Shown: positions 1 through 42,169 of the stretch, piece by piece | How positions within the stretch are numbered: position 1 is the stretch's first letter | Layout: every line of letters begins with the position of its first letter | Notes under the pieces: model-generated | Database searches by the model: none | Told to the model about the DNA's origin: nothing | Seen by the model: only the letters and a program-made list of their open reading frames with translations | Source: a virus | Length of the DNA: 42,169 nt | IMG/VR virus record: IMGVR_UViG_3300048073_000007 | Reading direction: 5' to 3' (one strand) | Program-made: the position numbers and the translations under genes

Positions 1-98
1 CTGCCGCCGAACAATTCGGCGAAGCGCTCACGTGCCTGTGAGCACGCGCCAACGCGCGCCAGGTCGGCGAGCGTGAGAATGCGGGAATTGGTGCTCAT
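1..98 (-). CDS. N-terminal fragment (32 codons, cut by window edge) of the 11-residue-repeat protein; same sequence as 42043..42140
   Basis: ATG at 98..96 preceded by AGAGGA. Translation MSTNSRILTLADLARVGACSQARERFAELFGG equals the N-terminus of ORF 41526..42140. Confidence 0.6.
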   Translation of the reverse strand, partial: MSTNSRILTLADLARVGACSQARERFAELFGG

Positions 99-127
99 CG
101 GTTCAATCCTCTTTGTGTGCGTCGCGC
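1..127. repeat. Terminal redundancy: 1..127 is identical to 42043..42169 and to an internal copy at 41328..41454
   Basis: Base-by-base comparison of the three stretches. Each contains the RBS and first 32 codons of the minus-strand repeat-protein gene. Confidence 0.9.
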
Positions 128-155: not shown

Positions 156-419
156 CTAGAACGGAATTTCGTCATCGAACGGCGGGCGCGTATCCTCTTG
201 CGGCTTAACCTGATCGCGCTGATTATCGCGCCGCGCTTCTTTCGGCTTGACCGACAGGGACATATAAGTTTTCCCGCCCTTCGACTTCTTGATCCAGCCT
301 GAGAGGAAGCACGGGACGCCGTTCACCGTGATAGACCCTGTGTAGTCCGGGTGCTGGTCCGTTTCCTTGTTCTCGACGCGGAACAGGGCGCCCGATCCGT
401 CCTTCTGTTCGTAGCTCAT
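156..419 (-). CDS. Compact SSB-like protein (87 aa) ending in the canonical acidic SSB tail DDEIPF
   Basis: ORF ends ...[20 protein letters not shown] upstream of the ATG. Sits directly downstream of the annealase gene, the usual SSAP-SSB pairing. Confidence 0.7.
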
Positions 420-422
420 AAT

Positions 423-1046
423 TTACCTCGTTTGTCCAAGAAAAACCTTGATCGCGCTGCGCTGCTTTGAGTCCAGCAGCTTCCACGCTTCGCGGTACGT
501 GTCCGCGTCCTTGTTCGCCTCTGCGTGCAGCGCCCGGAGCCGCTCGCTCTTGCGCGCGTGCTGTTCTTCCTCTGTGGTGCCGGTTTCCTCCGCGTTGAGG
601 GCGGAAAGGAACTTGTCGGCTATCGCCTGAACCTGTGGCGATGCCCCTTCCGGCAAATCCTCCCCGGCGTACAGGTAGAGGCCGAGGCCGTGAAGGGCAA
701 TACCTTTGACCAGGCATCTCTGCATGGCGGTATTAACCTGAAATGCGTTGGGGTTTGGGATGGGGTTATTGCGGTGATCCATGACGGGCAATTGCGCGGT
801 CATCGCCTTGCCGAAGGCGGTAACGGTGCATGAGACCATCATCGTGTCGCCGTACATGATGGGCGTCCGGTACTCCCAGTTAGCGGCGGGGTCTAACTGC
901 AGGAGCTGGTCAACTGCGTAGGCCCATGACAGGTAGGAAAAGCCATTCTTCTTCTCTACCTTCTCGTTCACGTTCACCGCGCGGAGGCGGGCAAAAGCAT
1001 TCGGTTCCATAAGCGTCTCTCCCGATAGATTCAAGCCATTCTGCAT
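423..1046 (-). CDS. Single-strand annealing protein, Sak/Rad52-like (DUF1071-type)
   Basis: Motifs FSYLSWAYAVDQL and GLGLYLYAGEDLP are typical of the Sak/Rad52-like phage annealase family. Confidence 0.75.
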   Translation of the reverse strand: MQNGLNLSGETLMEPNAFARLRAVNVNEKVEKKNGFSYLSWAYAVDQLLQLDPAANWEYRTPIMYGDTMMVSCTVTAFGKAMTAQLPVMDHRNNPIPNPNAFQVNTAMQRCLVKGIALHGLGLYLYAGEDLPEGASPQVQAIADKFLSALNAEETGTTEEEQHARKSERLRALHAEANKDADTYREAWKLLDSKQRSAIKVFLGQTR

Positions 1047-1107
1047 GTTGCGGGTCTGCGTCGAGCAACTCGCGCAATTCCTCGTCCGGCGGCTGGTCGT
1101 CGCTCAT
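910..1107 (-). CDS. Possible small acidic protein (65 aa); the only ORF covering the 57-nt gap 1047..1103, but most of it overlaps the annealase gene out of frame
   Basis: ATG overlaps the upstream stop (ATGA). N-terminus is MSDDQPPDEELRELLDADPQ. The long overlap and high-GC context make it doubtful. Confidence 0.25.
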   Translation of the reverse strand: MSDDQPPDEELRELLDADPQHAEWLESIGRDAYGTECFCPPPRGEREREGREEEWLFLPVMGLRS

Positions 1108-2141
1108 TTTACCTCCACCAGTTTACCCCCCTGCGCTTTGTACCATGTGTCTGCCTTAATCCGGCCTTTGCCGACACATCCTGTCGCAAACCCGACGCAC
1201 TTACCGTTTTTGTCAAACTCGGCGAGCGATATCCACGTTCCAGCCGCACCCTTAGCCTTGGCGCTGCGCGAACTTGAGGCGATCACGGAATCATTACCCG
1301 ACGCTGCGAGCTGGGCGTAGTGTCCCGACGCTGCGAGCTTGGCGGAGTCTCCCGACGCTGCGAGCTTGGCGGAGTGTCCCGACGCTGCGAGCTGGGCGGA
1401 GTCTCCCGACGCTGCGAGCTGGGCGTAGCCTCCCGACGCTGCGAGCTTGGCGTAGTCTCCCGACGCTGCGAGCTTGGCGTAGTCTCCCGACGCTGCGAGC
1501 TTGGCGTAGTCTCCCGACGCTGCGAGCTTGGCGGAGTGTCCCGACGCTGCGAGCTTGGCGTAGTCTCCCGACGCTGCGAGCTTGGCGGAGTGTCCCGACG
1601 CTGCGAGCTTGGCGGAGTCTCCCGACGCTGCGAGCTGGGCGTAGTGTCCCGACGCTGCGAGCTGGGCGTAGCCTCCCGACGCTGCGAGCTGGGCGGAGTC
1701 TCCCGGCGCTGCGAGCTTGGCGGAGTGTCCCGACGCTGCGAGCTGGGCGGAGTCTCCCGACGCTGCGAGCTTGGCAGCGTGTCCCGACGCTGCGAGCTGG
1801 GCGGAGTCCGCTTTGTCTTTCTGCTTCTTTGAGCATGCATCCCAGACAAACCGAATAGCCGCAGCGATAAACTCCGGCAGCGTCAATTCGGCCTTGATGC
1901 TGATAGATGAGGATGCAACCTTCGAGTCCTCATCGTGCTTGACAATCGTTCCGCCTACTTCAACTTCGGCGATCTTGCATGTCGTTAGGTCGTAGTAATC
2001 GAGCACGTCTAGCGGATTCTCGCACGCATGAAATCCAGACTTGCATATCACAGCATCGCCGTTGTACGTATACGTCTCGCCGACCTCGTACTGCATGTCT
2101 CGGCATTTCCAGTCCGGTCCAAACGCTTTGTATGCTTTCAC
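1104..2141 (-). CDS. DUF7666-like N-terminal domain followed by 19 nonapeptide repeats [S/Y]A[Q/K]LAASG[D/H/G]
   Basis: Start refined to GTG 2141: GAGGAG RBS 6 nt upstream and a GTGA overlap with the upstream stop. The N-terminus KAYKAFGPDWKCRDMQYEVGETY...GFHACENPLDVLDYY matches a family widespread in phages. Confidence 0.8.
   Translation of the reverse strand: MKAYKAFGPDWKCRDMQYEVGETYTYNGDAVICKSGFHACENPLDVLDYYDLTTCKIAEVEVGGTIVKHDEDSKVASSSISIKAELTLPEFIAAAIRFVWDACSKKQKDKADSAQLAASGHAAKLAASGDSAQLAASGHSAKLAAPGDSAQLAASGGYAQLAASGHYAQLAASGDSAKLAASGHSAKLAASGDYAKLAASGHSAKLAASGDYAKLAASGDYAKLAASGDYAKLAASGGYAQLAASGDSAQLAASGHSAKLAASGDSAKLAASGHYAQLAASGNDSVIASSSRSAKAKGAAGTWISLAEFDKNGKCVGFATGCVGKGRIKADTWYKAQGGKLVEVK
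1293..1805 (-). repeat. 27-bp tandem repeat x19, in frame
   Basis: Coding-strand unit is GG(A) [C/G]AC T[A/C]C GCC [C/A]AG CTC GCA GCG TCG. Variation is confined to three codons. Confidence 0.95.
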
Positions 2142-2464
2142 GTCGCGCTCCTCAGGTACGGAGGAATGGTATCGAAGCACCCAAGCGCCTTTTCCTGCCG
2201 CCGCGTCACCTCGGCCGTGATGAGGGCCGCCTTCTCGGCGTAGCGCCGTTCAAGGCTACGCGCCTGCATGGCGAGGGTGCGCAGTTCGTTGGTGTCGGTA
2301 CGCGCGAAGTCGTGCACGCCGATAGCCAGTATACGTTTGGTGTAGTGCTCGTCGCGGATCTGCTCCATGTTGGCGAGCGCGTGATTGATGGTGTCCTCGG
2401 TTTCCATGTCCGCCATTTCCTTATAGAAGGCGCCCATGGTGTTGGTCAGGATCTTGTCAGTCAT
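2138..2464 (-). CDS. Hypothetical early protein (108 aa)
   Basis: ATG 2464 lies 8-9 nt after GGGAG. Its stop overlaps the next start (GTGA). The longer form starting at 2536 was rejected. Confidence 0.6.
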   Translation of the reverse strand: MTDKILTNTMGAFYKEMADMETEDTINHALANMEQIRDEHYTKRILAIGVHDFARTDTNELRTLAMQARSLERRYAEKAALITAEVTRRQEKALGCFDTIPPYLRSAT

Positions 2465-2666
2465 TGTCATACTCCCGGATGTGTGATTCGAAGTCGTCGC
2501 GGTGGAGGGCGAGCTTGTTAACGGACATTTCGGCATTCTGGACGTGCTCGCCGGTCTGAACCTCGAGGTTCTGGCTGTCGCGGACGGCCAGGTTGCGCAT
2601 GTGGCGCCGCTCGGTTTCCTCGCGGGTGAACATGCGGCGTATCATGTCGATAGTGGAGCGCATCAT
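2457..2666 (-). CDS. Hypothetical early protein (69 aa)
   Basis: ATG overlaps the stop of the upstream micro-ORF (ATGA). Amino-acid composition is balanced. Confidence 0.55.
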   Translation of the reverse strand: MMRSTIDMIRRMFTREETERRHMRNLAVRDSQNLEVQTGEHVQNAEMSVNKLALHRDDFESHIREYDND

Positions 2667-2734
2667 GTGAAGAACTCCGCAAGGGTGTAGCCGGCGACGG
2701 CGCAGAATGAGAGGAAGCAGAGGAAGTCGAACAT
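2663..2734 (-). CDS. Micro-ORF, 23-aa very hydrophobic peptide MFDFLCFLSFCAVAGYTLAEFFT
   Basis: Start overlaps the upstream stop (TGATG) and stop overlaps the downstream start (ATGA). It exactly fills the gap between two genes. Confidence 0.45.
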   Translation of the reverse strand: MFDFLCFLSFCAVAGYTLAEFFT

Positions 2735-3000
2735 CAGATATCCTCCTCCGGTTCCACTGCGTCGCGCTCGTTGTGGGCGGTGTTCACGATACGGTCCAAG
2801 TCCTCGCGCTCGCTTTCCGGCAGAGAGTCGATATCGAGGGCGATGGTGTGATCCAGATACGTCCCGCCGAACGCGATGAAGTCGGCGGCGACCAGAGCCG
2901 TGGCCTTGCCGTCCGGCTCGTACTGGGCTTCGAGATCGCACTCGACGCCGAGCACGCGGGCGGTAACGCAGACGTGCAAGCAACCTGACAAGTGACGCAT
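2734..3000 (-). CDS. Hypothetical acidic protein (88 aa)
   Basis: GGAGG RBS 7 nt upstream of the ATG. C-terminus is rich in D/E. Confidence 0.6.
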   Translation of the reverse strand: MRHLSGCLHVCVTARVLGVECDLEAQYEPDGKATALVAADFIAFGGTYLDHTIALDIDSLPESEREDLDRIVNTAHNERDAVEPEEDI

Positions 3001-3003
3001 GAC

Positions 3004-3537
3004 TTAGCCTCCCACCACTCGCAGGAACTCTGCACGTTGAGCGTCCCTCGCAGCGGCCCACGCAGCGTCCCACGCAGCGTCCCTCGCAGCGTCCCTCGCA
3101 GCGGCCCACGCAGCGGCCCTCGCAGCGTCCCACGCAGCGGCCCACGCAGCGGCCCTCGCAGCGTCCCACGCAGCGGCCCACGCAGCGGCCCACGCAGTGT
3201 CCCACGCAGCGACCCTCGCAGCGGCCAATTCTGCATCTGTCGCCTGCCCGTTGGCATGCCGTTCTGCAATATCTAGCGTCGCGATGCTGCGCGCATCGGT
3301 CATCAGGTGCTGTATCTGCCGCGCGCACCAGACAGCGAACAGGCGCCATTTGCGAACGTGCTGCGGCTCGGCGCGGCATGCCCACAGTGCGTCATCAATA
3401 CCGTTCGATGCGACGATCGTGGCGTAAGGCAGCGGATCGTCGTCGGCCATGGTCTTGCCGAGATACGTGAGCAGTTTCGCCCAGCCCTCGGCGCAAGGAT
3501 CGTGAGCACGGATGCGGTTAAGCGTGGTCGTAATCAT
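3004..3537 (-). CDS. First gene of the leftward operon: globular N-domain (about 100 aa, motif DPCAEGW...ALWACR) plus 16 tetrapeptide repeats AAW[A/D]/AAR[A/D]
   Basis: GGGAG RBS, with the PL-like promoter directly upstream. Ala/Trp/Arg repeat with strict 4-residue period. Confidence 0.8.
   Translation of the reverse strand: MITTTLNRIRAHDPCAEGWAKLLTYLGKTMADDDPLPYATIVASNGIDDALWACRAEPQHVRKWRLFAVWCARQIQHLMTDARSIATLDIAERHANGQATDAELAAARVAAWDTAWAAAWAAAWDAARAAAWAAAWDAARAAAWAAARDAARDAAWDAAWAAARDAQRAEFLRVVGG
3034..3225 (-). repeat. 12-bp tandem repeat x16, in frame
   Basis: Plus-strand unit is cgcagcg[g/t]ccc[a/t]. Confidence 0.9.
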
Positions 3538-3650
3538 GTTTATCTCCCGGTAACGTGAGACGGACTGTAAACCACCACGGGGCGGTTGTCAACACCTATC
3601 CTCAGTAACGTTGCGTTGCTGTTTATGGTGTGACGTGGTAAACGGTGCGT
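3538..3650. promoter_or_regulatory. Divergent early control region. Leftward promoter TTGACA-17-TACAGT (minus strand; -35 at 3592..3587, -10 at 3569..3564). The rightward promoter is not clearly identifiable.
   Basis: Perfect -35, 17-nt spacer, -10 with T1/A2/T6. Repeated motifs: GTAACGT (3551, 3605) and GTTTA..TAAAC inverted pairs (3538/3568, 3621/3639). Confidence 0.55.
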
Positions 3651-3926
3651 ATGGACACGTCAAATCCGTTTGACCTGGCGGTAAACAGGGTCGGGGGGCG
3701 GCGCGCGCTGGCGGCCGCTATGGGAGTCAGTGTGCAGGCGCTGGTGCGGTGGCGGCGCAGGATACCTGTCGAGAGAGTTATCGCCTTGGAGGGGCTCTCA
3801 GGCATTCCTAGGGCCGTTCTCAGGCCGGACATCTATGGAAGCGGGAGCCCTGCGAACGGGTGCGCTAGCCCGCTCGAGGACTCCGGCTCCACGCCCGGAA
3901 CGTCGCCGGATCAGGCGGCAGTGTAA
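3651..3926 (+). CDS. Cro/YdaS-like HTH DNA-binding protein
   Basis: GGRRALAAAMGVSVQALVRWRRRIPVERVIALEGLSGIPRAVLRPDIY matches the YdaS/Cro-type HTH pattern. Alternative GTG start at 3645. Confidence 0.8.
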   Translation: MDTSNPFDLAVNRVGGRRALAAAMGVSVQALVRWRRRIPVERVIALEGLSGIPRAVLRPDIYGSGSPANGCASPLEDSGSTPGTSPDQAAV

Positions 3927-4467: not shown

Positions 4468-5010
4468 ATGGACTTAAACGAAGAAGCCTGGTTGCGCTGG
4501 AAGCAGTATCGCTCGGCTATCAAGAAGCCGATCAAGGAAGCATCGGAAGGGGCGATGAAGCTGGCTCTGATGCGACACGGCGACCACGAGACTCAGGCCA
4601 GGGTTGTTGACCAGAGCATAGCGAACCAGTGGCAAGGACTGTTCGAACTCAAGGCCAAGAAAGACGTAACGGATAAGTTCGCGCCACCGAAGCGGACGAA
4701 AGAGCAAGAGACTGCCTCGAATGCCGTTTTTGAGTCAGACAAGGCGCGAAGTGAAAAGCACTGGCGCGAATACGTTGCGGAGAAAGGCGGGCTTGGGGTA
4801 TTGCATGTGGCAGAGGCGTACCTGGCTCGAGCAGAGGTTACTCAGGACGCGCAACAAATAGTTGACACAAAGTCATGGTTATCTGATAAGGTATCCGTCG
4901 TGTTGTGGGAGTTAGCTGCTGCTGATGTTGCGAAGGACCTGCGTGCAATGCGCCTGGTCTGGCAGCTATTCGGTGAAGGCAAGGTTCGGGAGTTAGAGGC
5001 TACTGCGTGA
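4468..5010 (+). CDS. Hypothetical protein (180 aa)
   Basis: Strong RBS AGGAGG. The N-terminus AWLRWKQYR...SIANQWQGLF faintly resembles DnaT-like or replication-organiser helper proteins (weak). Confidence 0.7.
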   Translation: MDLNEEAWLRWKQYRSAIKKPIKEASEGAMKLALMRHGDHETQARVVDQSIANQWQGLFELKAKKDVTDKFAPPKRTKEQETASNAVFESDKARSEKHWREYVAEKGGLGVLHVAEAYLARAEVTQDAQQIVDTKSWLSDKVSVVLWELAAADVAKDLRAMRLVWQLFGEGKVRELEATA

Positions 5011-5949: not shown

Positions 5950-5960
5950 AACTAAAGGCT

Positions 5961-6017
5961 TTCCGGATTAACTTGTGGAAGTGGGCATGATGGCATATAG
6001 TCTAATTCCGGATAAAC
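5961..6017 (+). promoter_or_regulatory. Candidate internal promoter TTGTGG-17-TATAGT (5973..6001) bracketed by two direct repeats TTCCGGAT[T/A]AAC (5961..5972, 6006..6017)
   Basis: Read directly from the sequence. Each repeat contains the palindrome TCCGGA. The second repeat sits at the predicted transcription start, just before the methyltransferase gene. Confidence 0.45.
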
Positions 6018-6032
6018 GTGTGGAAACGCGCC

Positions 6033-6809
6033 ATGAGCATGATCGTGCTTTCGTTGTTCCCCGGCCTCGGATTGCTGGACCGAGCGTTCGAGGAGGAGGG
6101 CTTCTGCGTCGTTCGCGGGCCAGACCTTCTGTGGGGTGGCGACGTGCGCTCGTTCCATCCGCCGGCGGGCAAGTTCGATGGTGTGATCGGCGGTCCGCCG
6201 TGCCAAGCGTTCAGTCAGCTCAGGTTCATGGTCGAACACAACGGTCACACGGTGGCTCCGAACCTGATCCCAGAGTTCGAGCGCGTAGTCGCCGAAGCGG
6301 CCCCGAGTTGGTTTGTCATGGAGAACGTGCCTGCGGCTCCGGCGCCCGTCGTGCAGGGTTACTTGCTGGACAACGCCGTGGTGCGCGACGTGTGGTGCGG
6401 TGGGGCGACCAGCCGGCTCCGTCGATTCTCGTTTGGCACGCCGGCGGGTTTGGCCTTGCGCGTGGAGACGCTGGCGCTGCACACGATGAACCCACTCCCC
6501 ACGGTCGTCTGCGACGCGCGCGAAGTGTCGGTGGCCATCGGCGGGTCTGGCTACAGGAAACCGAGCGCATCTGGCGGTCGCACGAGTTCGCTGAACCGAG
6601 GCGGGCCAATGCCCCACGATGCCGGGCGCACGCTGGGGATCGCGGAGATGGCCGAGCGGCAGGGGGTTCCCGACGGGTTCGTCGAGGCCCTGCAAGAGCA
6701 TGGCGCGTTCACTGCGAAGGCGATGCGCAAGGGCCTCGGCAACGGGGTGCCGCTGCCGATGGGCAGAGCGGTGGCGCGCGCCGTTCTGGAAGCGGTCGCG
6801 GGTCGATGA
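6033..6809 (+). CDS. DNA (cytosine-5) methyltransferase, compact orphan type
   Basis: Motif I FPGLG, motif IV GGPPCQAFS, motif VI FVMENV, motif X GNGVPLPM. Alternative GTG start at 6018. No adjacent restriction enzyme. Confidence 0.85.
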   Translation: MSMIVLSLFPGLGLLDRAFEEEGFCVVRGPDLLWGGDVRSFHPPAGKFDGVIGGPPCQAFSQLRFMVEHNGHTVAPNLIPEFERVVAEAAPSWFVMENVPAAPAPVVQGYLLDNAVVRDVWCGGATSRLRRFSFGTPAGLALRVETLALHTMNPLPTVVCDAREVSVAIGGSGYRKPSASGGRTSSLNRGGPMPHDAGRTLGIAEMAERQGVPDGFVEALQEHGAFTAKAMRKGLGNGVPLPMGRAVARAVLEAVAGR

Positions 6810-6812
6810 CCC

Positions 6813-7079
6813 ATGACCGACATCCTCGACTTGCCGGACTGGACGCTGATCGACAAGCGCTCGGACGGCGACGAGTACGAGCTGGAGGCCGAGTACCGGC
6901 TGCTGCCCAGAGCCTGCGTCAAGTGCGGCTCGGTCGGTCGGTTGTACAAGCACGGCACCAAGGACACGACCTTCCGCCGGGGCGAACGGAGCACCAACCA
7001 CATGCTGATATGCCCGACATGCCACTCTCGTTTCCACACGAAGCCTCATGCTCCCTCGTCAGCAGCTTCCACACGTTGA
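6813..7079 (+). CDS. Small zinc-finger protein; the N-terminus resembles the zf-ISL3 type DNA-binding finger
   Basis: LDLPDWTLID...EYELEAEY...CVKCGS...HG...CPTCHSRF. The 3' end overlaps the next gene. Confidence 0.45.
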   Translation: MTDILDLPDWTLIDKRSDGDEYELEAEYRLLPRACVKCGSVGRLYKHGTKDTTFRRGERSTNHMLICPTCHSRFHTKPHAPSSAASTR

Positions 7080-7399
7080 TCCGGAGTGCCAAACTAAATT
7101 ACATTGACCACGGCTACCCCAAGGGCTGGGATAGCCTTGTAACACCGATCATCGAAAAATGTGAAGAAAAGGGCCTCACGATCATGCAGATCAAGGAGAA
7201 GTACGGCGGCCTGCGGTTCTACTACGCCCCTCTGGACGATGAGGTAGACGCTATGGTTGATGCCGCCGAGGAGCAATCTCAGCGTACCTGCGAGGTATGT
7301 GGGGAGCATGGGGTGCTCAGGGACGGAGGCTGGTTGCAGACCCTGTGTGATGAGCACGCAGATGGCAGGGAGGCCCTTAACGTTAAGGAAATGCCATGA
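7010..7399 (+). CDS. Hypothetical phage protein with the IKEKYGGLRFYY ... CEVCG ... LCDEH signature
   Basis: This is the C-terminal part of the artefactual long frame 5975..7399. Start is ambiguous (ATG 7010 or 7019, or TTG 7076 overlapping the upstream TGA). Confidence 0.55.
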   Translation: MPDMPLSFPHEASCSLVSSFHTLIRSAKLNYIDHGYPKGWDSLVTPIIEKCEEKGLTIMQIKEKYGGLRFYYAPLDDEVDAMVDAAEEQSQRTCEVCGEHGVLRDGGWLQTLCDEHADGREALNVKEMP

Positions 7400-19959: not shown

Positions 19960-21141
19960 ATGAGCCGTTGGTGGACACTCACAAGCGTACTGGGCACCAG
20001 GGGGCCGCGCGACTCGATTAGCCGGTTCTGGACGCCATCGCTCACGGCGGTTGATCCGTCGATACCGAGCCTGCCGCTGGAGACGCCGGCCAGCGGCGCC
20101 AGCGTTGCGCTGAGCGGTAGCTCGGTAACGACCAGCGCGGGCACGCTAGGTGTAACGGCAGACGTTACACTGACTGGTAGCGCTGTTACGGCCAGCGCTG
20201 GAACGGTCACGGCCGCTGCCGAGTGGTCGGTAGCGCTGTCTGGCGAGGCTGCTGCCGCTAGTGCCGGGACGCTGGGCATAGAGGGTGCTGTAGCGCTCTC
20301 AGGCAGCGCTGTAACGGCGTCCGCAGGGACTCTGGCCACTGGTGTGTCCGTCGCGCTGAGCGGCGAGGAAGCCACGAGCGTTGCGGGGACGCTAGGCATC
20401 ACGGCTGATGTCGCGCTGTCTGGCAGCGCGGTTACGGTCAGTGCCGGGACGGTAACGCCTGATACGGGCGCATCGGTCGCGCTTACCGGAGAGGCTGTAA
20501 CGGTCAGTGCCGGCACGGTTGTTCCGGGTATCTCCGTAGACATCGGCGTTACCTATGATTACCTCGTTGACGAGTACGGTAACAACATCGTCGATGAAGA
20601 TGGGAACTTCATCGTTGTAGGCGTGACGGCCGCTGCCCCGGTAACGGTCAGTGCAGGGACGCTCGGTGCTGCGTCCGGTACGGTTGTCGCGCTATCCGGT
20701 AGTGAAGTGGCGGTTAACGCTGGTTCGCTGTCGGTGTCCGGCGGTGACGCCGAGGTGGCCGAGGGAGAGACCGCTACCGGCGGCTGGCTCTGGGGGCTGG
20801 AGTACGACCGATACCTGGACCGCAAGCGCAAGAAGCGCAAGCGCGAGATCGAGCTAGAGGAAGCCGAGGAACAGGCGCAGCAGCTACGGGCGACCGAGCG
20901 CGAGATAGCGACGCTCTTGCACGAGCAGGAGCGGCAGGACCTTGAGAGGGCGGAATCAGAGCGGCTGTTGCGCATGGCGCGGCGGTACGCTGATTCGGTA
21001 GAGATTGCCGACAAGCTACGCGAGGCGATGGCCAAGGCCGCCGCACTCGAGACGTTCGGAGCGCTGGAGGCGCTTAAGCGCGAACTCGAGCGGACGGCAG
21101 AGGAAGAAGAAGTCGCATTGTTGTTGATTTTAAATCAATAG
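19960..21141 (+). CDS. Protein with about 9 imperfect 20-residue repeats (VALSGSAVTxSAGTLG...) and a highly charged coiled-coil C-terminus
   Basis: Repeats span about 20101..20739. C-terminus is RKRKKRKREIELEEAEEQAQQLRATEREIA... Confidence 0.7.
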   Translation: MSRWWTLTSVLGTRGPRDSISRFWTPSLTAVDPSIPSLPLETPASGASVALSGSSVTTSAGTLGVTADVTLTGSAVTASAGTVTAAAEWSVALSGEAAAASAGTLGIEGAVALSGSAVTASAGTLATGVSVALSGEEATSVAGTLGITADVALSGSAVTVSAGTVTPDTGASVALTGEAVTVSAGTVVPGISVDIGVTYDYLVDEYGNNIVDEDGNFIVVGVTAAAPVTVSAGTLGAASGTVVALSGSEVAVNAGSLSVSGGDAEVAEGETATGGWLWGLEYDRYLDRKRKKRKREIELEEAEEQAQQLRATEREIATLLHEQERQDLERAESERLLRMARRYADSVEIADKLREAMAKAAALETFGALEALKRELERTAEEEEVALLLILNQ

Positions 21142-38891: not shown

Positions 38892-39422
38892 TCATGGCTT
38901 CCCCTCCATCGCCTCGTCGATTGCGCCGTCAAGTGCGTCGCGGTTCAGGTCGCAAGTCCAATTCGGTGCCAGCCACTGCCGAACCTCCCATTGCATCCAC
39001 CGGGCGCTGCGGTCTGTGCACGCATCCCCGCGCAGCCATCGGTAACGCACAGCGTCCTTGCGCAGCTCGGCGTTCTCCGCGCGCAAATCGTTGTTCTCTC
39101 GCGTAAGCGTGTCGTTCATGGCGCGCTCGCTTTCCAGCGCATCAGGTGACGATTCAGCGCGTAAGCGGCGAGCGCGCTCAAGTTGCGCCGACGAGATTGC
39201 CTTAGCCGCGTCCATGCCGCTGATTGCGGCGGACGACTGCCTCTTAATCGCTTGCTTGAGACTCTCAATCTTCGCTTGCTGCGCCTCGATGTTTCGCAGC
39301 AGCGTGCGGCGGTCTATGTAAGCCATTTCGTGACTGTCCGGCAAGATGTGTGGCGGAAGCGGCGCGTAGCAGGCATCCCGCTCCCGTATATCTCGCTCAA
39401 TGTCGGCGTCGGTGAGGGTCAT
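38892..39422 (-). CDS. Ead/Ea22-like coiled-coil protein
   Basis: Central coiled coil and C-terminal RYRWLR motif. Confidence 0.6.
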   Translation of the reverse strand: MTLTDADIERDIRERDACYAPLPPHILPDSHEMAYIDRRTLLRNIEAQQAKIESLKQAIKRQSSAAISGMDAAKAISSAQLERARRLRAESSPDALESERAMNDTLTRENNDLRAENAELRKDAVRYRWLRGDACTDRSARWMQWEVRQWLAPNWTCDLNRDALDGAIDEAMEGKP

Positions 39423-39707: not shown

Positions 39708-40226
39708 TCATGTCTGCTCCCCGAACGTCATCTGCGCGATGTCCGCAAACGCGCGGTATTGCCTGCCAGCAAGCGCGACACCGTGTGCTTTCTTCACCGC
39801 TGCGCGGAACTTAGCCAGCGTGCCAAAAAAGCACCCGGCGCGCACGTAGATGCCGTCCTCAAAGTTGAAGAAGTATGCCTTGCGAAGCGACGACGCGCTG
39901 CGGTCGAACGCGATGTAGGGATTGCCTGGCTTGGCTTTGTGGCCCTCGAAGCTGCACCGCTCGCCGAAGCTGCACCCCTCACCGAAGCTGCACCACTCGC
40001 CGAAGCTGCACCGCTCGCCGAAGCTGCACCCCTCACCGAAGCTGCACCCCTCGCCGAAGCTGCACCCCTCACCGAAGCTGCACCACTCGCCGAAGCTGCA
40101 CCGCTCGCCGAAGCTGCACCGCTCGCCGCAATTACCGACCAGACTGTAGTCGCCCGTCGGGCATATCTTGATACCGTCCGCGCCACGCGGAAACGCCTCG
40201 AACCCGGCCTGCGTGTATCGCTTCAT
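39708..40226 (-). CDS. Protein with 9 perfect and 2 degenerate hexapeptide repeats CSFGE[R/W/G]
   Basis: 172 aa. The repeats are flanked by unique N- and C-terminal domains. Confidence 0.8.
   Translation of the reverse strand: MKRYTQAGFEAFPRGADGIKICPTGDYSLVGNCGERCSFGERCSFGEWCSFGEGCSFGEGCSFGEGCSFGERCSFGEWCSFGEGCSFGERCSFEGHKAKPGNPYIAFDRSASSLRKAYFFNFEDGIYVRAGCFFGTLAKFRAAVKKAHGVALAGRQYRAFADIAQMTFGEQT
39939..40130 (-). repeat. 18-bp tandem repeat x about 10, in frame
   Basis: Coding-strand unit GG[C/T] GAG [C/G/T]GG TGC AGC TTC. The only non-synonymous variation is the first base of one codon. Confidence 0.95.
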
Positions 40227-40543
40227 GGCAGCACCTCGCGGACGTGGATGATTTCGCGCCCGTCGCCCATGCGATCAGTGATACTGCGCGCTATCAATTC
40301 GGTAGTGAACGCCTCCTGCCGCTGTTCGTTATCCGTGACGATCCACCACTCGCGCGGCTTCGGCGCGACGTTGCGGAGGTAGTCGTCCGCGTCGTCGTCA
40401 TTGAAGACATCCGCGTTAAGCGTCGGCGTCGGCGAAGCCCGCCATTCCACAACCACGGACCCGTCTTCGTGGACTTTTAGCACTGTTGCCGGAAGCCACT
40501 CGCTGCCAAAAAGAACTTGAACAGGCTTTGTCCAGTCGATCAT
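40223..40543 (-). CDS. Hypothetical protein (106 aa)
   Basis: ATGA overlap with the downstream gene. Confidence 0.6.
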   Translation of the reverse strand: MIDWTKPVQVLFGSEWLPATVLKVHEDGSVVVEWRASPTPTLNADVFNDDDADDYLRNVAPKPREWWIVTDNEQRQEAFTTELIARSITDRMGDGREIIHVREVLP

Positions 40544-40600: not shown

Positions 40601-40879
40601 TCATTTGTCCAGTATTCTCCCCTCGCGCAGCAGGATGGCTTGGGTACGAAAAACGCCGTGCGCAAAGGCTAACTGCACGTCCGGCGACTTATCGCTATCA
40701 ACGCGAGAGTGACAGGCGCTACAGCCCCATGACGCTATAACGTCAGGGCTCTTTTTGCCGATTCCGCTGATGCCTATCAGCCTGTAGTGGCACAGTACGA
40801 CGGTTTCAGGGTTGCCGTTGCAGATACCAGGGAGCCGTATCTGGCACTCCCGGCCTTTGGCGAGTTTACGCAGGTTCAT
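40601..40879 (-). CDS. YbcO-like protein (DUF1364 putative nuclease)
   Basis: LRKLAKGRECQIRLPGICNGNPETVVLCHYR...SACHSRVD closely follows the E. coli YbcO pattern. Confidence 0.8.
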   Translation of the reverse strand: MNLRKLAKGRECQIRLPGICNGNPETVVLCHYRLIGISGIGKKSPDVIASWGCSACHSRVDSDKSPDVQLAFAHGVFRTQAILLREGRILDK

Positions 40880-41276
40880 AGTTGAACCACTCAGGGTCCG
40901 GGTCTGGCACCACGATGCCGAACTCGGCCATTTTTACCTGTATCCACGCGATGTAGTCCGAGAACTCGCGCTTACTCATCCTCGCGCTACGACGGAGAGG
41001 CCGTAGGCGCTTCCTCCCGAGGCCCTCGACGGTCTCCCAGCCGTAGCACTCACCTAAACACCACTCGTGAACGTCTGCCAGCGTCCAGCCCTCGAGCCGC
41101 TCCGTGATGGCGGGATAGATCACGCCCCACAGCGCTCTATTCTGGGCGTCGCTGCGTTTCGGCTTCCATTCCTTGACATCGACCGACCACGCTTTGTCCA
41201 GCGGGAGCGCGGCGAGCTGCTTACCTAGCGCAGCCAGCCGTGCGTCGCGCGGGATGTTGGCTGGGAGGACGATCAC
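40866..41276 (-). CDS. ninB: NinB/Orf recombination mediator
   Basis: KRSDAQNRALWGVIYPAI and RMSKREFSDYIAWIQ parallel lambda NinB. GTG start overlaps the upstream stop (GTGA). Confidence 0.8.
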   Translation of the reverse strand: MIVLPANIPRDARLAALGKQLAALPLDKAWSVDVKEWKPKRSDAQNRALWGVIYPAITERLEGWTLADVHEWCLGECYGWETVEGLGRKRLRPLRRSARMSKREFSDYIAWIQVKMAEFGIVVPDPDPEWFNYEPA

Positions 41277-41425
41277 GGATCGAAGTCGCCGGCGTGTTGC
41301 TCCGCCAAGGGCACAGTCACGGCGACGCTGCCGCCGAACAATTCGGCGAAGCGCTCACGTGCCTGTGAGCACGCGCCAACGCGCGCCAGGTCGGCGAGCG
41401 TGAGAATGCGGGAATTGGTGCTCAT
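41273..41425 (-). pseudogene. Truncated duplicate (50 codons) of the 5' end of the 11-residue-repeat gene, fused to the ninB start
   Basis: Identical RBS and first 49 codons (MSTNSRILTL...AEQHAGDFD) as ORF 41526..42140, then Pro and a TGA that overlaps the ninB GTG. Confidence 0.7.
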
Positions 41426-41454
41426 CGGTTCAATCCTCTTTGTGTGCGTCGCGC
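41279..41454. repeat. 176-bp direct repeat, copy 1 (copy 2 = 41994..42169)
   Basis: Exact match by eye over all 176 nt. Confidence 0.9.
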
Positions 41455-41525: not shown

Positions 41526-42140
41526 TCATAGGGCCTCCTGAATGTACAGTTCAGCAAACGTGCGCGCGCTGATGCGCTCATACTCCGCGCGGGCCGGGGC
41601 GCTGATGCGCTGGTACTCCGCGTAGGCCGCGTCGCGGATGCGCTGGTACTCCGCGTAGGCCGGGGCGCTGATGCGCTGGTACTCCGCGTAGGCCGCGGCG
41701 CTGATGCGCTCATACTCCGCGCGGGCCGGGGCGCTGATGCGCTGGTACTCCGCGTAGGCCGCGTCGCTGATGCGCTGGTACTCCGCGTAGGCCGCGTCGC
41801 GGATGCGCTGGTACTCCGCGCGGGCCGCGTCGCTGATGCGCTGGTACTCCGCGTAGGCCGCGTCGCGGATGCGCTGGTACTCCGCGTAGGCCGGGGCGCT
41901 GATGCGCTGGTACTCCGCGCGGGCCGGGGCGCTGATGCGCTCGTACTCCGCGCGGGTCGCGACGCTTAGAAACTGGCGCGCAGCAAAATCGAAATCGAAG
42001 TCGCCGGCGTGTTGCTCCGCCAAGGGCACAGTCACGGCGACGCTGCCGCCGAACAATTCGGCGAAGCGCTCACGTGCCTGTGAGCACGCGCCAACGCGCG
42101 CCAGGTCGGCGAGCGTGAGAATGCGGGAATTGGTGCTCAT
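41526..42140 (-). CDS. Protein with a 63-aa N-domain (GACSQARERF motif) followed by 12 hendecapeptide repeats AEY[Q/E]RI[S/R][A/D][P/A]A[R/Y]
   Basis: 204 aa. AGAGGA RBS. The repeat fills residues 64..195. Confidence 0.8.
   Translation of the reverse strand: MSTNSRILTLADLARVGACSQARERFAELFGGSVAVTVPLAEQHAGDFDFDFAARQFLSVATRAEYERISAPARAEYQRISAPAYAEYQRIRDAAYAEYQRISDAARAEYQRIRDAAYAEYQRISDAAYAEYQRISAPARAEYERISAAAYAEYQRISAPAYAEYQRIRDAAYAEYQRISAPARAEYERISARTFAELYIQEAL
41556..41951 (-). repeat. 33-bp tandem repeat x12, in frame
   Basis: Example coding unit GAC GCG GCC TAC GCG GAG TAC CAG CGC ATC AGC. Confidence 0.95.
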
Positions 42141-42169
42141 CGGTTCAATCCTCTTTGTGTGCGTCGCGC
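41994..42169. repeat. 176-bp direct repeat, copy 2 (its last 127 bp also equal 1..127)
   Basis: Exact match to 41279..41454. Confidence 0.9.

Follow-up and report, generated by a model that had tools for sequence, protein, structure and literature searches.

Four array genes in one leftward early operon

The IMG/VR virus record IMGVR_UViG_3300048073_000007 comprises 42,169 nt of DNA (the whole of this stretch is hereafter called the window), and its leftward early operon carries four genes, here termed P1 to P4, each built around a different tandem repeat that lies in frame. Tandem Repeats Finder (TRF), run over the whole window, returned exactly four strong arrays, all of them within this operon, and the best score in the remaining 35 kb was 65. 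The chance of all four falling in a 6.7-kb operon that makes up 16% of the genome is about 6e-4. TRF and the open reading frame (ORF) coordinates bear out the first-pass annotation, which had described in-frame arrays with periods of 27, 12, 18, and 33 bp, all multiples of 3, covering some 1.3 kb or 3% of the genome; the measured sum is 1,282 nt, i.e., 3.05% of the 42,042-nt circle. The genes and their arrays are the following.

1104..2141, minus strand: P1, an ORF with a DUF7666 N-domain, a nonapeptide array, and a conserved C-domain (YdhT-like module); Pfam PF24703, PHROG 4433
1297..1808, minus strand: 27-bp array in P1, 19.0 copies (TRF, 92% matches, score 828)
3004..3537, minus strand: P2, first gene of the leftward operon, with a conserved N-domain of 100 amino acids (aa) and a 4-aa (W/R-D/A-A-A) array; PHROG 18326
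3040..3226, minus strand: 12-bp array in P2, 15.6 copies, with a 36-bp super-period (TRF)
39708..40226, minus strand: P3, an ORF with a short N-domain, a hexapeptide (C-S-F-G-E-x) array, and a conserved C-domain (PHROG 20532)
39947..40128, minus strand: 18-bp array in P3, 10.1 copies (TRF, 92%)
41526..42140, minus strand: P4, an ORF between ssb and ninB with a 60-aa N-domain and an 11-aa (A-E-Y-x-R-I/V-x-x-x-A-x) array
41566..41966, minus strand: 33-bp array in P4, 12.2 copies (TRF, 89%)

An internal repeat search of the window showed bases 1-127 to be identical to 42043-42169, so the unique circle measures 42,042 nt. A terminal overlap of 127 nt is typical of k=127 assembly, and this one falls within a repeat that is also present at 41328-41454. 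In the closest complete relative, the 40.5-kb circular podovirus MW202691.1 from Manatee Spring (80-99% identity in mosaic blocks), ssb is next to ninB, and this adjacency together with the overlap justifies joining the window ends. The four genes thus belong to a single minus-strand operon, as had been proposed, which runs from 3537 to 1 and then from 42042 to about 38892. Its order is P2, three small ORFs, P1, a 65-aa ORF, Sak, SSB, P4, a P4 stub, NinB, YbcO, a 106-aa ORF, P3, and two further ORFs.

All four ORFs are preceded by a Shine-Dalgarno-like sequence, the start codons of P1 and P3 share bases with the stop codon upstream (GTGA/ATGA), and each array lies in frame inside a gene with one or more conserved nonrepeat domains. 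In-frame cutting yields 5 to 10 distinct DNA units per array, and the unit tables agree with the earlier statement that the differences fall on two to four codons and are mostly single-base changes. Counted over units rather than over mutational events, nonsynonymous and synonymous differences number 34/3 in P1, 17/0 in P2, 7/3 in P3, and 24/3 in P4. Positive selection was considered as the source of this excess and rejected: duplicated units are not independent events, so that the excess alone is no evidence of selection, and a few mutations copied by duplication give the same picture.

The repeats might instead act as DNA, i.e., as iterons or as packaging or recombination sites whose open frames are incidental; all six frames are indeed open across the arrays, which also adjoin recombination genes. 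We give this explanation hardly any credence. Every period is a multiple of 3, the P1 alignment keeps the flanking domains in one frame across arrays of differing length, relatives keep the amino acid pattern while the DNA unit differs (SAKLAASGD versus SAATNTGNW), and an O-like replication gene is found elsewhere, at 4468-5010.

Assembly support and whole-unit turnover

It is very improbable that the arrays or their copy numbers are artefacts of short-read de Bruijn assembly. The 127-nt terminal overlap, of the k=127 type, does lie inside a 176-nt repeat that is present twice, and exact searches of the metagenome collection found none of the P4 duplication junctions. Against an artefact, the longest exact internal repeat of each array measures 59-89 nt, which leaves all four of them unique at k of at least 99; three independent assemblies from other samples (L001, which is MW202691.1, L085, and L086) reproduce the arrays with whole-unit differences; and the cultured phages ES18 and SEN22 have the same architecture. 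Such differences among independent, near-identical assemblies indicate that the arrays are real and turn over fast, which speaks against the concern, raised in the first-pass annotation, that they could be products of assembly.

Comparison with related genomes revealed whole-unit changes for P1, P2, and P3. P1 counts 19 units in the window against 12 in MW202691.1, a 189-bp difference between flanks that are about 80-97% identical. The P2 array of MW202691.1 has the same length and another order of unit variants, and a single 36-bp indel separates P2 from its counterpart in L086 (165 versus 177 aa; 98.7-99.4% identity over 2 kb). P3 numbers 10 units in the window and 3 in L085 (protein P0243), i.e., 126 bp fewer at 96-97% identity, and P4 has 12 units versus 7 in its closest relative, P0001. 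Unit number is thus polymorphic with respect to L086 and L085 (flanks 96-99% identical) and to L001, as in variable-number tandem repeats. These changes in close relatives accord with the recent expansion or homogenisation and the length variability suggested from the sequence alone, and copy number is not invariant in homologs (3-24 copies within families).

Typing schemes have long made use of tandem repeats on prophages that differ from strain to strain. STTR6, a tandem repeat on the lambdoid prophage Gifsy-1 of Salmonella Typhimurium, varies between close strains and is used in typing (PMC3901673, PMC5183578); it differs from the P1-P4 arrays in its 6-bp unit and in serving solely as a marker. 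In Serratia symbiotica evolved in the laboratory, a gene named 'ydhT_1' lost 54 bp (2x27) in frame (PMC12505973), which fits rapid unit loss; the paper does not describe the repeats of that gene. A general literature search for tandem repeats in phages returned nothing pertinent.

P1: a DUF7666 protein with a nonapeptide array

The P1 unit reads G-[D/H/G]-[S/Y]-A-[K/Q]-L-A-A-S. Residues 1-93 belong to DUF7666 (PF24703; 116.5 bits, E 7.9e-34, gathering score 27 bits), a domain without mention in the literature searched, and residues 1-344 match positions 13-310 of the 312-position profile of PHROG 4433 (E 7.8e-53). A phmmer search of 1.84 billion representatives retrieved relatives in 4,976 clusters at 50% identity, 410 of them at E<1e-30. 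The best 150 are 192-565 aa long and hold 3-24 copies, with a top period of 9, 18, or 27 residues in 141 of them. By tblastn, homologs occur in 68 phage records (Pseudomonas, Salmonella, Ralstonia, Vibrio, Acinetobacter, and others).

The array genes had been placed outside the standard P22-like or lambdoid repertoire. This does not hold, since ES18 gp53 and SEN22_35 of Salmonella P22-like phages share DUF7666 and a 27-bp array in the PL operon, and P2 too has relatives in cultured phages. Both Salmonella proteins resemble P1 in their homologous N- and C-domains, in a central array of near-identical 27-bp/9-aa units, in the variation of the two residues that follow the conserved Gly, and in an early-left position, directly after the N/gene-24 antiterminator gene. 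Their arrays comprise 10.6 copies in ES18 gp53 and 21.7 in SEN22_35, a two-fold difference between close relatives. They depart from P1 in the unit (SAATNTGNW instead of SAKLAASGD), in sharing only about 30% identity with it outside the array, and in their enterobacterial hosts.

YdhT of Escherichia coli K-12 (b1669, NF007410) has a nonapeptide array and a C-terminal domain homologous to those of P1 (BLASTP, 4e-22); the NCBIfam model NF007410 matches P1 with E 2.3e-27 over the array region only. Unlike P1, ydhT is chromosomal, being the last gene of ydhYVWXUT, and its product has another N-domain and degenerate units, with no tandem repeat at the DNA level. The assignment of P1 as a YdhT equivalog was discarded (96.2 bits versus a cut-off of 300, N-domain not in common). 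In NC_000913.3 (locus L084, 8748-9560, minus strand), the degenerate array of ydhT counts 13 units and is followed by the C-domain.

The fusion of the P1-type array and C-domain to different N-domains suggests a portable module, serving for scaffolding or for targeting. The P1-family proteins P0404, P0424, and P0434 join it to N-domains other than DUF7666; among the alternative N-domains, one looks by eye macro-domain-like and one PcfJ-like.

As to structure, a top period of 18 residues in 47 of the 150 relatives and the D/H alternation seen here suggest that the P1 array could form a beta-solenoid with two nonapeptides per turn. The RTX nonapeptide beta-roll was tried as a model and rejected: the 9-residue period fits, but the consensus G-[DNY]-x-[SA]-x-[LI]-A-[SA]-S does not match GGxGxDxUx. 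No RTX family appeared in the Pfam scan of P1.

P2: a four-residue array on a conserved N-domain

P2 is an ordinary member of PHROG 18326 (residues 1-168, E 2.4e-51). It has more than 4,675 relatives, whose N-domains are 65-98% identical, and tblastn located homologs in 24 phage records, among them Pseudomonas phages AF and PPpW-3, Burkholderia phage Bcep176 (gp36), Erwinia phage phiEt88, and Vibrio phages. The PHROG 18326 proteins of Bcep176, AF, PPpW-3, and phiEt88 follow the same plan, an N-domain and then a 4-aa array of Ala, Trp, Arg, and Asp. Across 80 IMG/VR loci, the 12-bp array of P2 homologs has 6-31 copies with a unit identity of 63-96%. On each of three IMG/VR viral contigs (L020, L034, and L056) there are two paralogs of the P2 family, both of which carry a 12-bp array of their own.

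An AlphaFold2 (AF2) model of P2, computed from a 41-sequence alignment, is all-alpha with a predicted local distance difference test (pLDDT) score of 80, rising to about 90 in the helical N-domain. Long helices at residues 101-137 and 141-176 form a hairpin, both arms of which derive from the array. In such a fold, the two invariant Ala positions would make a tight interface and the W/R and D/A positions would point outward. A Foldseek search of the model against the PDB gave no significant match. Against BFVD, it gave a weak hit to an 'Imm-5-like domain-containing protein' (E 0.024, template-modelling score 0.51, root-mean-square deviation 2.9, 114 columns), and an hmmscan against Pfam, aimed at Imm-5 and Imm-5-like immunity proteins, found no match to P2 or four of its relatives even at E<=5. 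The literature searched held nothing on Imm-5 together with phages.

P3: a hexapeptide array

The 1,369 relatives of P3 range from prophages of Alistipes to uncultured Caudoviricetes, with a common build and 3-17 copies of the hexapeptide. Its unit F-G-E-x-C-S fits the left-handed beta-helix (LbH) rule [LIV]-G-x2-[STAV]-x, with the variation located at x2. The PF00132 (Hexapep) match of P3 itself (19.1 bits, E 0.0011) is below the gathering score of 27, many family members carry precomputed PF00132 matches, and weak matches to LbH regions were obtained with the LpxD hidden Markov model (E 8e-4) and, by profile comparison with the PDB, with LpxA (E 0.009). P3 resembles LpxA/LpxD (PF00132) in the hexapeptide rule and in variation on the x2 positions. 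It differs from them in having no acyltransferase domain, Cys at every small-residue position, and near-identical DNA units.

In MW202691.1 (L001), a 133-aa gene at 2736-3137 (minus strand) contains a 21-bp array of 12.3 copies that encodes the heptapeptide G-D-C-S/T-S/G-L-x and matches Pfam MSG (E 1.5e-7). This gene sits in the P3 slot, so a different repeat family occupies the operon position of P3 in that phage.

P4: an 11-residue array gene inserted between ssb and ninB

P4 has 154 relatives, in which an N-domain of about 60 aa precedes 3.5-11 A-E-Y-x-R-V 11-mers; their alignment shows that P4 has the characteristic N-domain residues (T9 L13 A18 C19 ... T37 L58) followed by 11-aa units. 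Some family members carry precomputed PF28068, and the 11-mer array is also found joined to an unrelated N-domain. The closest relative, P0001, belongs to a phage of unrelated type that has a family-A DNA polymerase, and no close relatives of P4 were found in IMG/VR. The 3-4-4 spacing of hydrophobic residues would be that of a hendecad (11-residue-period) helix. The YdhT N-terminus aligned with the P4 N-domain in hhalign at E 0.0035 and 9% probability, by which relatedness is not demonstrated. Similarly, the motif 'TL..L...xC..g...F..fG' aligns in register between the P2 and P4 N-domains in hhalign, where support is lacking (probability 0.3%, E 0.21).

The surroundings of P4 bear the marks of its arrival. 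About 0.92 kb separate the ssb stop from the ninB start here; MW202691.1 lacks P4, and its ssb abuts or overlaps ninB. Three features describe the junction.

41279..41454: first copy of a 176-nt perfect direct repeat, holding the ninB-stub tail, the P4 ribosome-binding site, and P4 codons 1-49
41994..42169: second copy of the 176-nt repeat, the last 127 nt of which are the terminal overlap of the window (1-127)
41273-41425, minus strand: 50-codon P4 stub ORF made by the first copy (read from the sequence)

The ssb-stop/ninB-start junction is duplicated (117-161 resembles 41240-41284), leaving a 12-codon ninB stub. Along the minus strand, the ssb stop is followed by the stub, made of codons 1-12 of ninB, and then by P4 with its ribosome-binding site. 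Another 71 nt separate the P4 stop from the perfect second 176-nt copy, which consists of the final 11 nt of the stub, the ribosome-binding site of P4, and its codons 1-49. Last comes intact ninB, with a start that overlaps the stop of the 50-codon stub ORF. By this arrangement, P4 is a recent insertion between ssb and ninB, and the 100% identity of the 176-nt copies points to a very recent event. If these copies recombined with each other, P4 would be lost or amplified. Their repeat is the sole ambiguous spot of the assembly: the circle is broken inside it, so the contig gives no count of the 715-nt unit (176-nt repeat plus P4 body).

A fixed scaffold with a variable stripe

The four families share a regularity. 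Arrays of strongly repetitive family members were cut into units, and within-array entropy was calculated in bits per column. In the P1 family (91 proteins), it reaches about 1.1, 1.1, and 0.9 bits at the two residues after Gly and at K/Q (columns 1, 2, and 4), with the other columns at <=0.18. The P2 family (37 proteins) has 1.2 and 1.1 bits at W/R and D/A (columns 0-1) and <=0.1 at the two Ala positions; the P3 family (43 proteins) has 1.2 and 1.9 bits at E-x (columns 4-5) and <=0.34 elsewhere; and in the P4 family (15 proteins) four columns vary (1, 4, 6, and 8). In all four families, the codons that vary in the window are those of the family-wide variable columns. This confinement of variation to the same two to four columns indicates that each family is a fixed scaffold with a variable stripe.

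It also bears on whether the arrays could be low-complexity sequence that expanded neutrally in linkers the proteins can spare, with no bearing on structure or function. They are GC-rich (70-79% versus 59.8% for the genome) and rich in Ala and Gly, range from 3 to 24 copies within families, and have no known phenotype, as neutral linkers would. We nonetheless consider this quite improbable, given that period and scaffold residues are kept in thousands of relatives, even in old degenerate arrays whose units have no DNA identity (YdhT, P0385, P0408, and P0452), and that the model of P2 shows its array as an ordered hairpin. The earlier suggestion of solenoid or helical repeat proteins is upheld for P2 by the AF2 hairpin; for P3, the subthreshold hexapeptide matches support it weakly.

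Four genes rather than one system

The first-pass annotation treated the four genes as a possible set. P2 homologs provided the test bed for a single conserved P1-P4 system, which was rejected on co-occurrence: within 10 kb on either side of the P2 homolog, no locus among 80 from IMG/VR has either end domain of P1 (N or C), the C-domain of P3, or the N-domain of P4, and MW202691.1 has P1 and P2 only, without P3 and without the P4 insertion. A genome-collection scan with a single protein gave only three loci (Prevotella and two Pseudomonadota metagenome-assembled genomes).

What does recur is the company of arrays. At least two strong in-frame arrays are present in 16 of the 80 loci, with periods that are nearly all multiples of 3, and the extra arrays encode P2 paralogs, pentapeptide repeats, CxxC repeats, and BspA-type leucine-rich repeats (LRRs). 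The four arrays of the window are the maximum among 84 sequences (83 fetched loci and the window). The window is an extreme case of a recurrent habit and not a distinct entity. Individual neighbours of P2 homologs include a classical pentapeptide-repeat protein (A-D-L-A-G; L041, 9398-9504), a 30-copy CxxC array with a 9-bp period (L031, 9287-9561), and a 1,393-aa BspA-type LRR protein (L066, 19795-20310).

Proposed origin, structure, and role

We think it probable that P1-P4 are four independently acquired accessory ('moron'-type) early-left genes of a P22-like podovirus, from different large phage and prophage families, each combining one or two conserved end domains with a structural repeat of variable number. 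With moderate confidence, we propose that each array folds as an elongated scaffold whose length would scale with copy number: an antiparallel, alanine-packed helical hairpin in P2, a left-handed beta-helix-like hexapeptide coil in P3, a beta-solenoid or roll-like structure with 18 residues per turn in P1, and a hendecad helix in P4. On each scaffold, the variable side chains would line up as a stripe, and unit number would change through replication slippage or single-strand annealing between units. More tentatively, this turnover is plausibly helped by the phage's own Sak, SSB, and NinB, and the products might be cytoplasmic early proteins that bind targets of the host or of competing phages. 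Inspection of the N-termini revealed no obvious signal peptides or membrane segments in P1-P4, which are near-neutral proteins (isoelectric points of 5.4-8.3).

Several points weigh against this interpretation. No family of the four has a known function, and PADLOC gave no match for P1-P4 or six neighbouring ORFs. PDB sequence and profile searches returned nothing significant for the four proteins or their families; the folds of P1, P3, and P4 are read from sequence pattern, and the single-sequence AF2 model of P1 failed, with a pLDDT of only 42. The copy numbers derive from short-read assemblies, the nonsynonymous excess of unit differences consists of a few mutational events copied by duplication, and the part ascribed to Sak in array instability is pure inference.

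The first-pass annotation went further and saw in P1-P4 a coordinated set of length-variable decoys, mimics, or sequestering scaffolds against host defence. The genes do lie in an early operon alongside other accessory genes; the fast change in copy number and the hypervariable surface columns would suit an arms race; and in ES18 and SEN22 the P1-type gene directly follows N, in an accessory position that we take to be the ral/17/sieB slot of lambda and P22. We nevertheless regard a coordinated defence set as unlikely: the four families do not co-occur in any of the 80 loci, P3 and P4 are absent from the closest complete relative, neither PADLOC nor any named anti-defence family is matched, and the chromosomal relative YdhT sits in a redox operon. 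All PHROG matches of P1-P4 are of 'unknown function', with no named anti-defence PHROG among them. Qnr/MfpA, Ocr, and ArdA do correspond to the picture drawn there, being repeat-built or elongated proteins that act by binding or sequestering. Ocr and ArdA are acidic DNA mimics. P1-P4 do not share that acidity, and they differ from the pentapeptide and DNA-mimic proteins in their periods (4, 6, 9, and 11 rather than 5), near-neutral charge, and want of any family match. An anti-defence role is a guess, neither supported nor excluded here.

The arrays are a striking instance of a known pattern and not a new kind of system, because all four genes fall into widespread phage families that are already catalogued, and the design exists in cultured P22-like phages (ES18 gp53 and SEN22_35) and has a degenerate relative, YdhT, in K-12. 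They are of value chiefly as a clean case of four in one and for the way in which the variable columns recur across families: four very large families of 'hypothetical proteins' follow one design, with conserved head domain(s), a repeat scaffold whose period does not change, hypervariable columns numbering two to four, and gain or loss of units between strains of 96-99% identity. Since the window shows all four array genes together beside a recombination module, this phage would be a convenient test bed for asking whether array instability is driven by annealing and what these abundant early proteins bind.

A bolder generalisation, which we hold to be rather doubtful, is that such genes sample a wide class of early proteins of phages, so far undescribed, in which an array that varies in unit number between near-identical strains builds a rigid scaffold with a hypervariable stripe, annealing accelerates the shuffling of units, and the targets belong to host immunity or rival phages. 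If so, this would amount to repeat-based, recombination-driven diversification of binding surfaces, with a logic like that of LRR-based variable receptors or diversity-generating retroelements. With the latter in mind, a reverse transcriptase domain was sought in ten ORFs, a subset of those in the window, and none was found.

Recombination neighbours and other features

The array genes are interspersed with recombination genes, and the following features complete the operon and its upstream region.

156..419, minus strand: SSB-like protein (PHROG 18154, 6.9e-11)
423..1046, minus strand: Sak-type single-strand annealing protein (Pfam SSAP_Sak, 1e-38)
40601..40879, minus strand: YbcO-like nuclease (Pfam YbcO, 6.6e-33)
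40866..41276, minus strand: NinB/Orf recombination mediator (PHROG 72, 4.2e-17), the first 12 codons of which are duplicated at 117-161
3564..3592, minus strand: promoter-like site TTGACA-17-TACAGT upstream of P2 (consensus scan, 10/12)
3645-3926, plus strand: Cro/YdaS-like gene (Pfam Cro/YdaS, 5.6e-13), divergent from the promoter-like site

Pfam and PHROG matches sustain the Sak, SSB, NinB, and YbcO-like members of the recombination kit listed in the first-pass annotation. Its fifth member, the 'Ea22-like' gene at 38892-39422, was dropped, as the sole match in these searches is to an unnamed PHROG. No terminator-like site was found on the minus strand. The late region is P22-like, with a portal, gp10-type head closure, an ejection protein, and a tailspike.

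Within the late region, the ORF at 19960-21141 (plus strand) contains nine imperfect 44-nt cores (64-77% identical) at 20104-20729, spaced by 60 or 66 nt, which correspond to 20/22-aa repeats; it has no PHROG match and encodes a probable virion protein. Two long ORFs, at 5952-7049 (minus strand, 365 aa) and 5975-7399 (plus strand, 474 aa), overlap almost completely on opposite strands. The 474-aa ORF and its neighbours are without a Pfam match, and a protein-like look is confined to the C-terminal part of the plus-strand ORF. Finally, the 106-aa ORF at 40223-40543 (minus strand), between YbcO and P3, is absent from L085, which is 96-97% identical on both flanks, a single-gene presence/absence mosaic.

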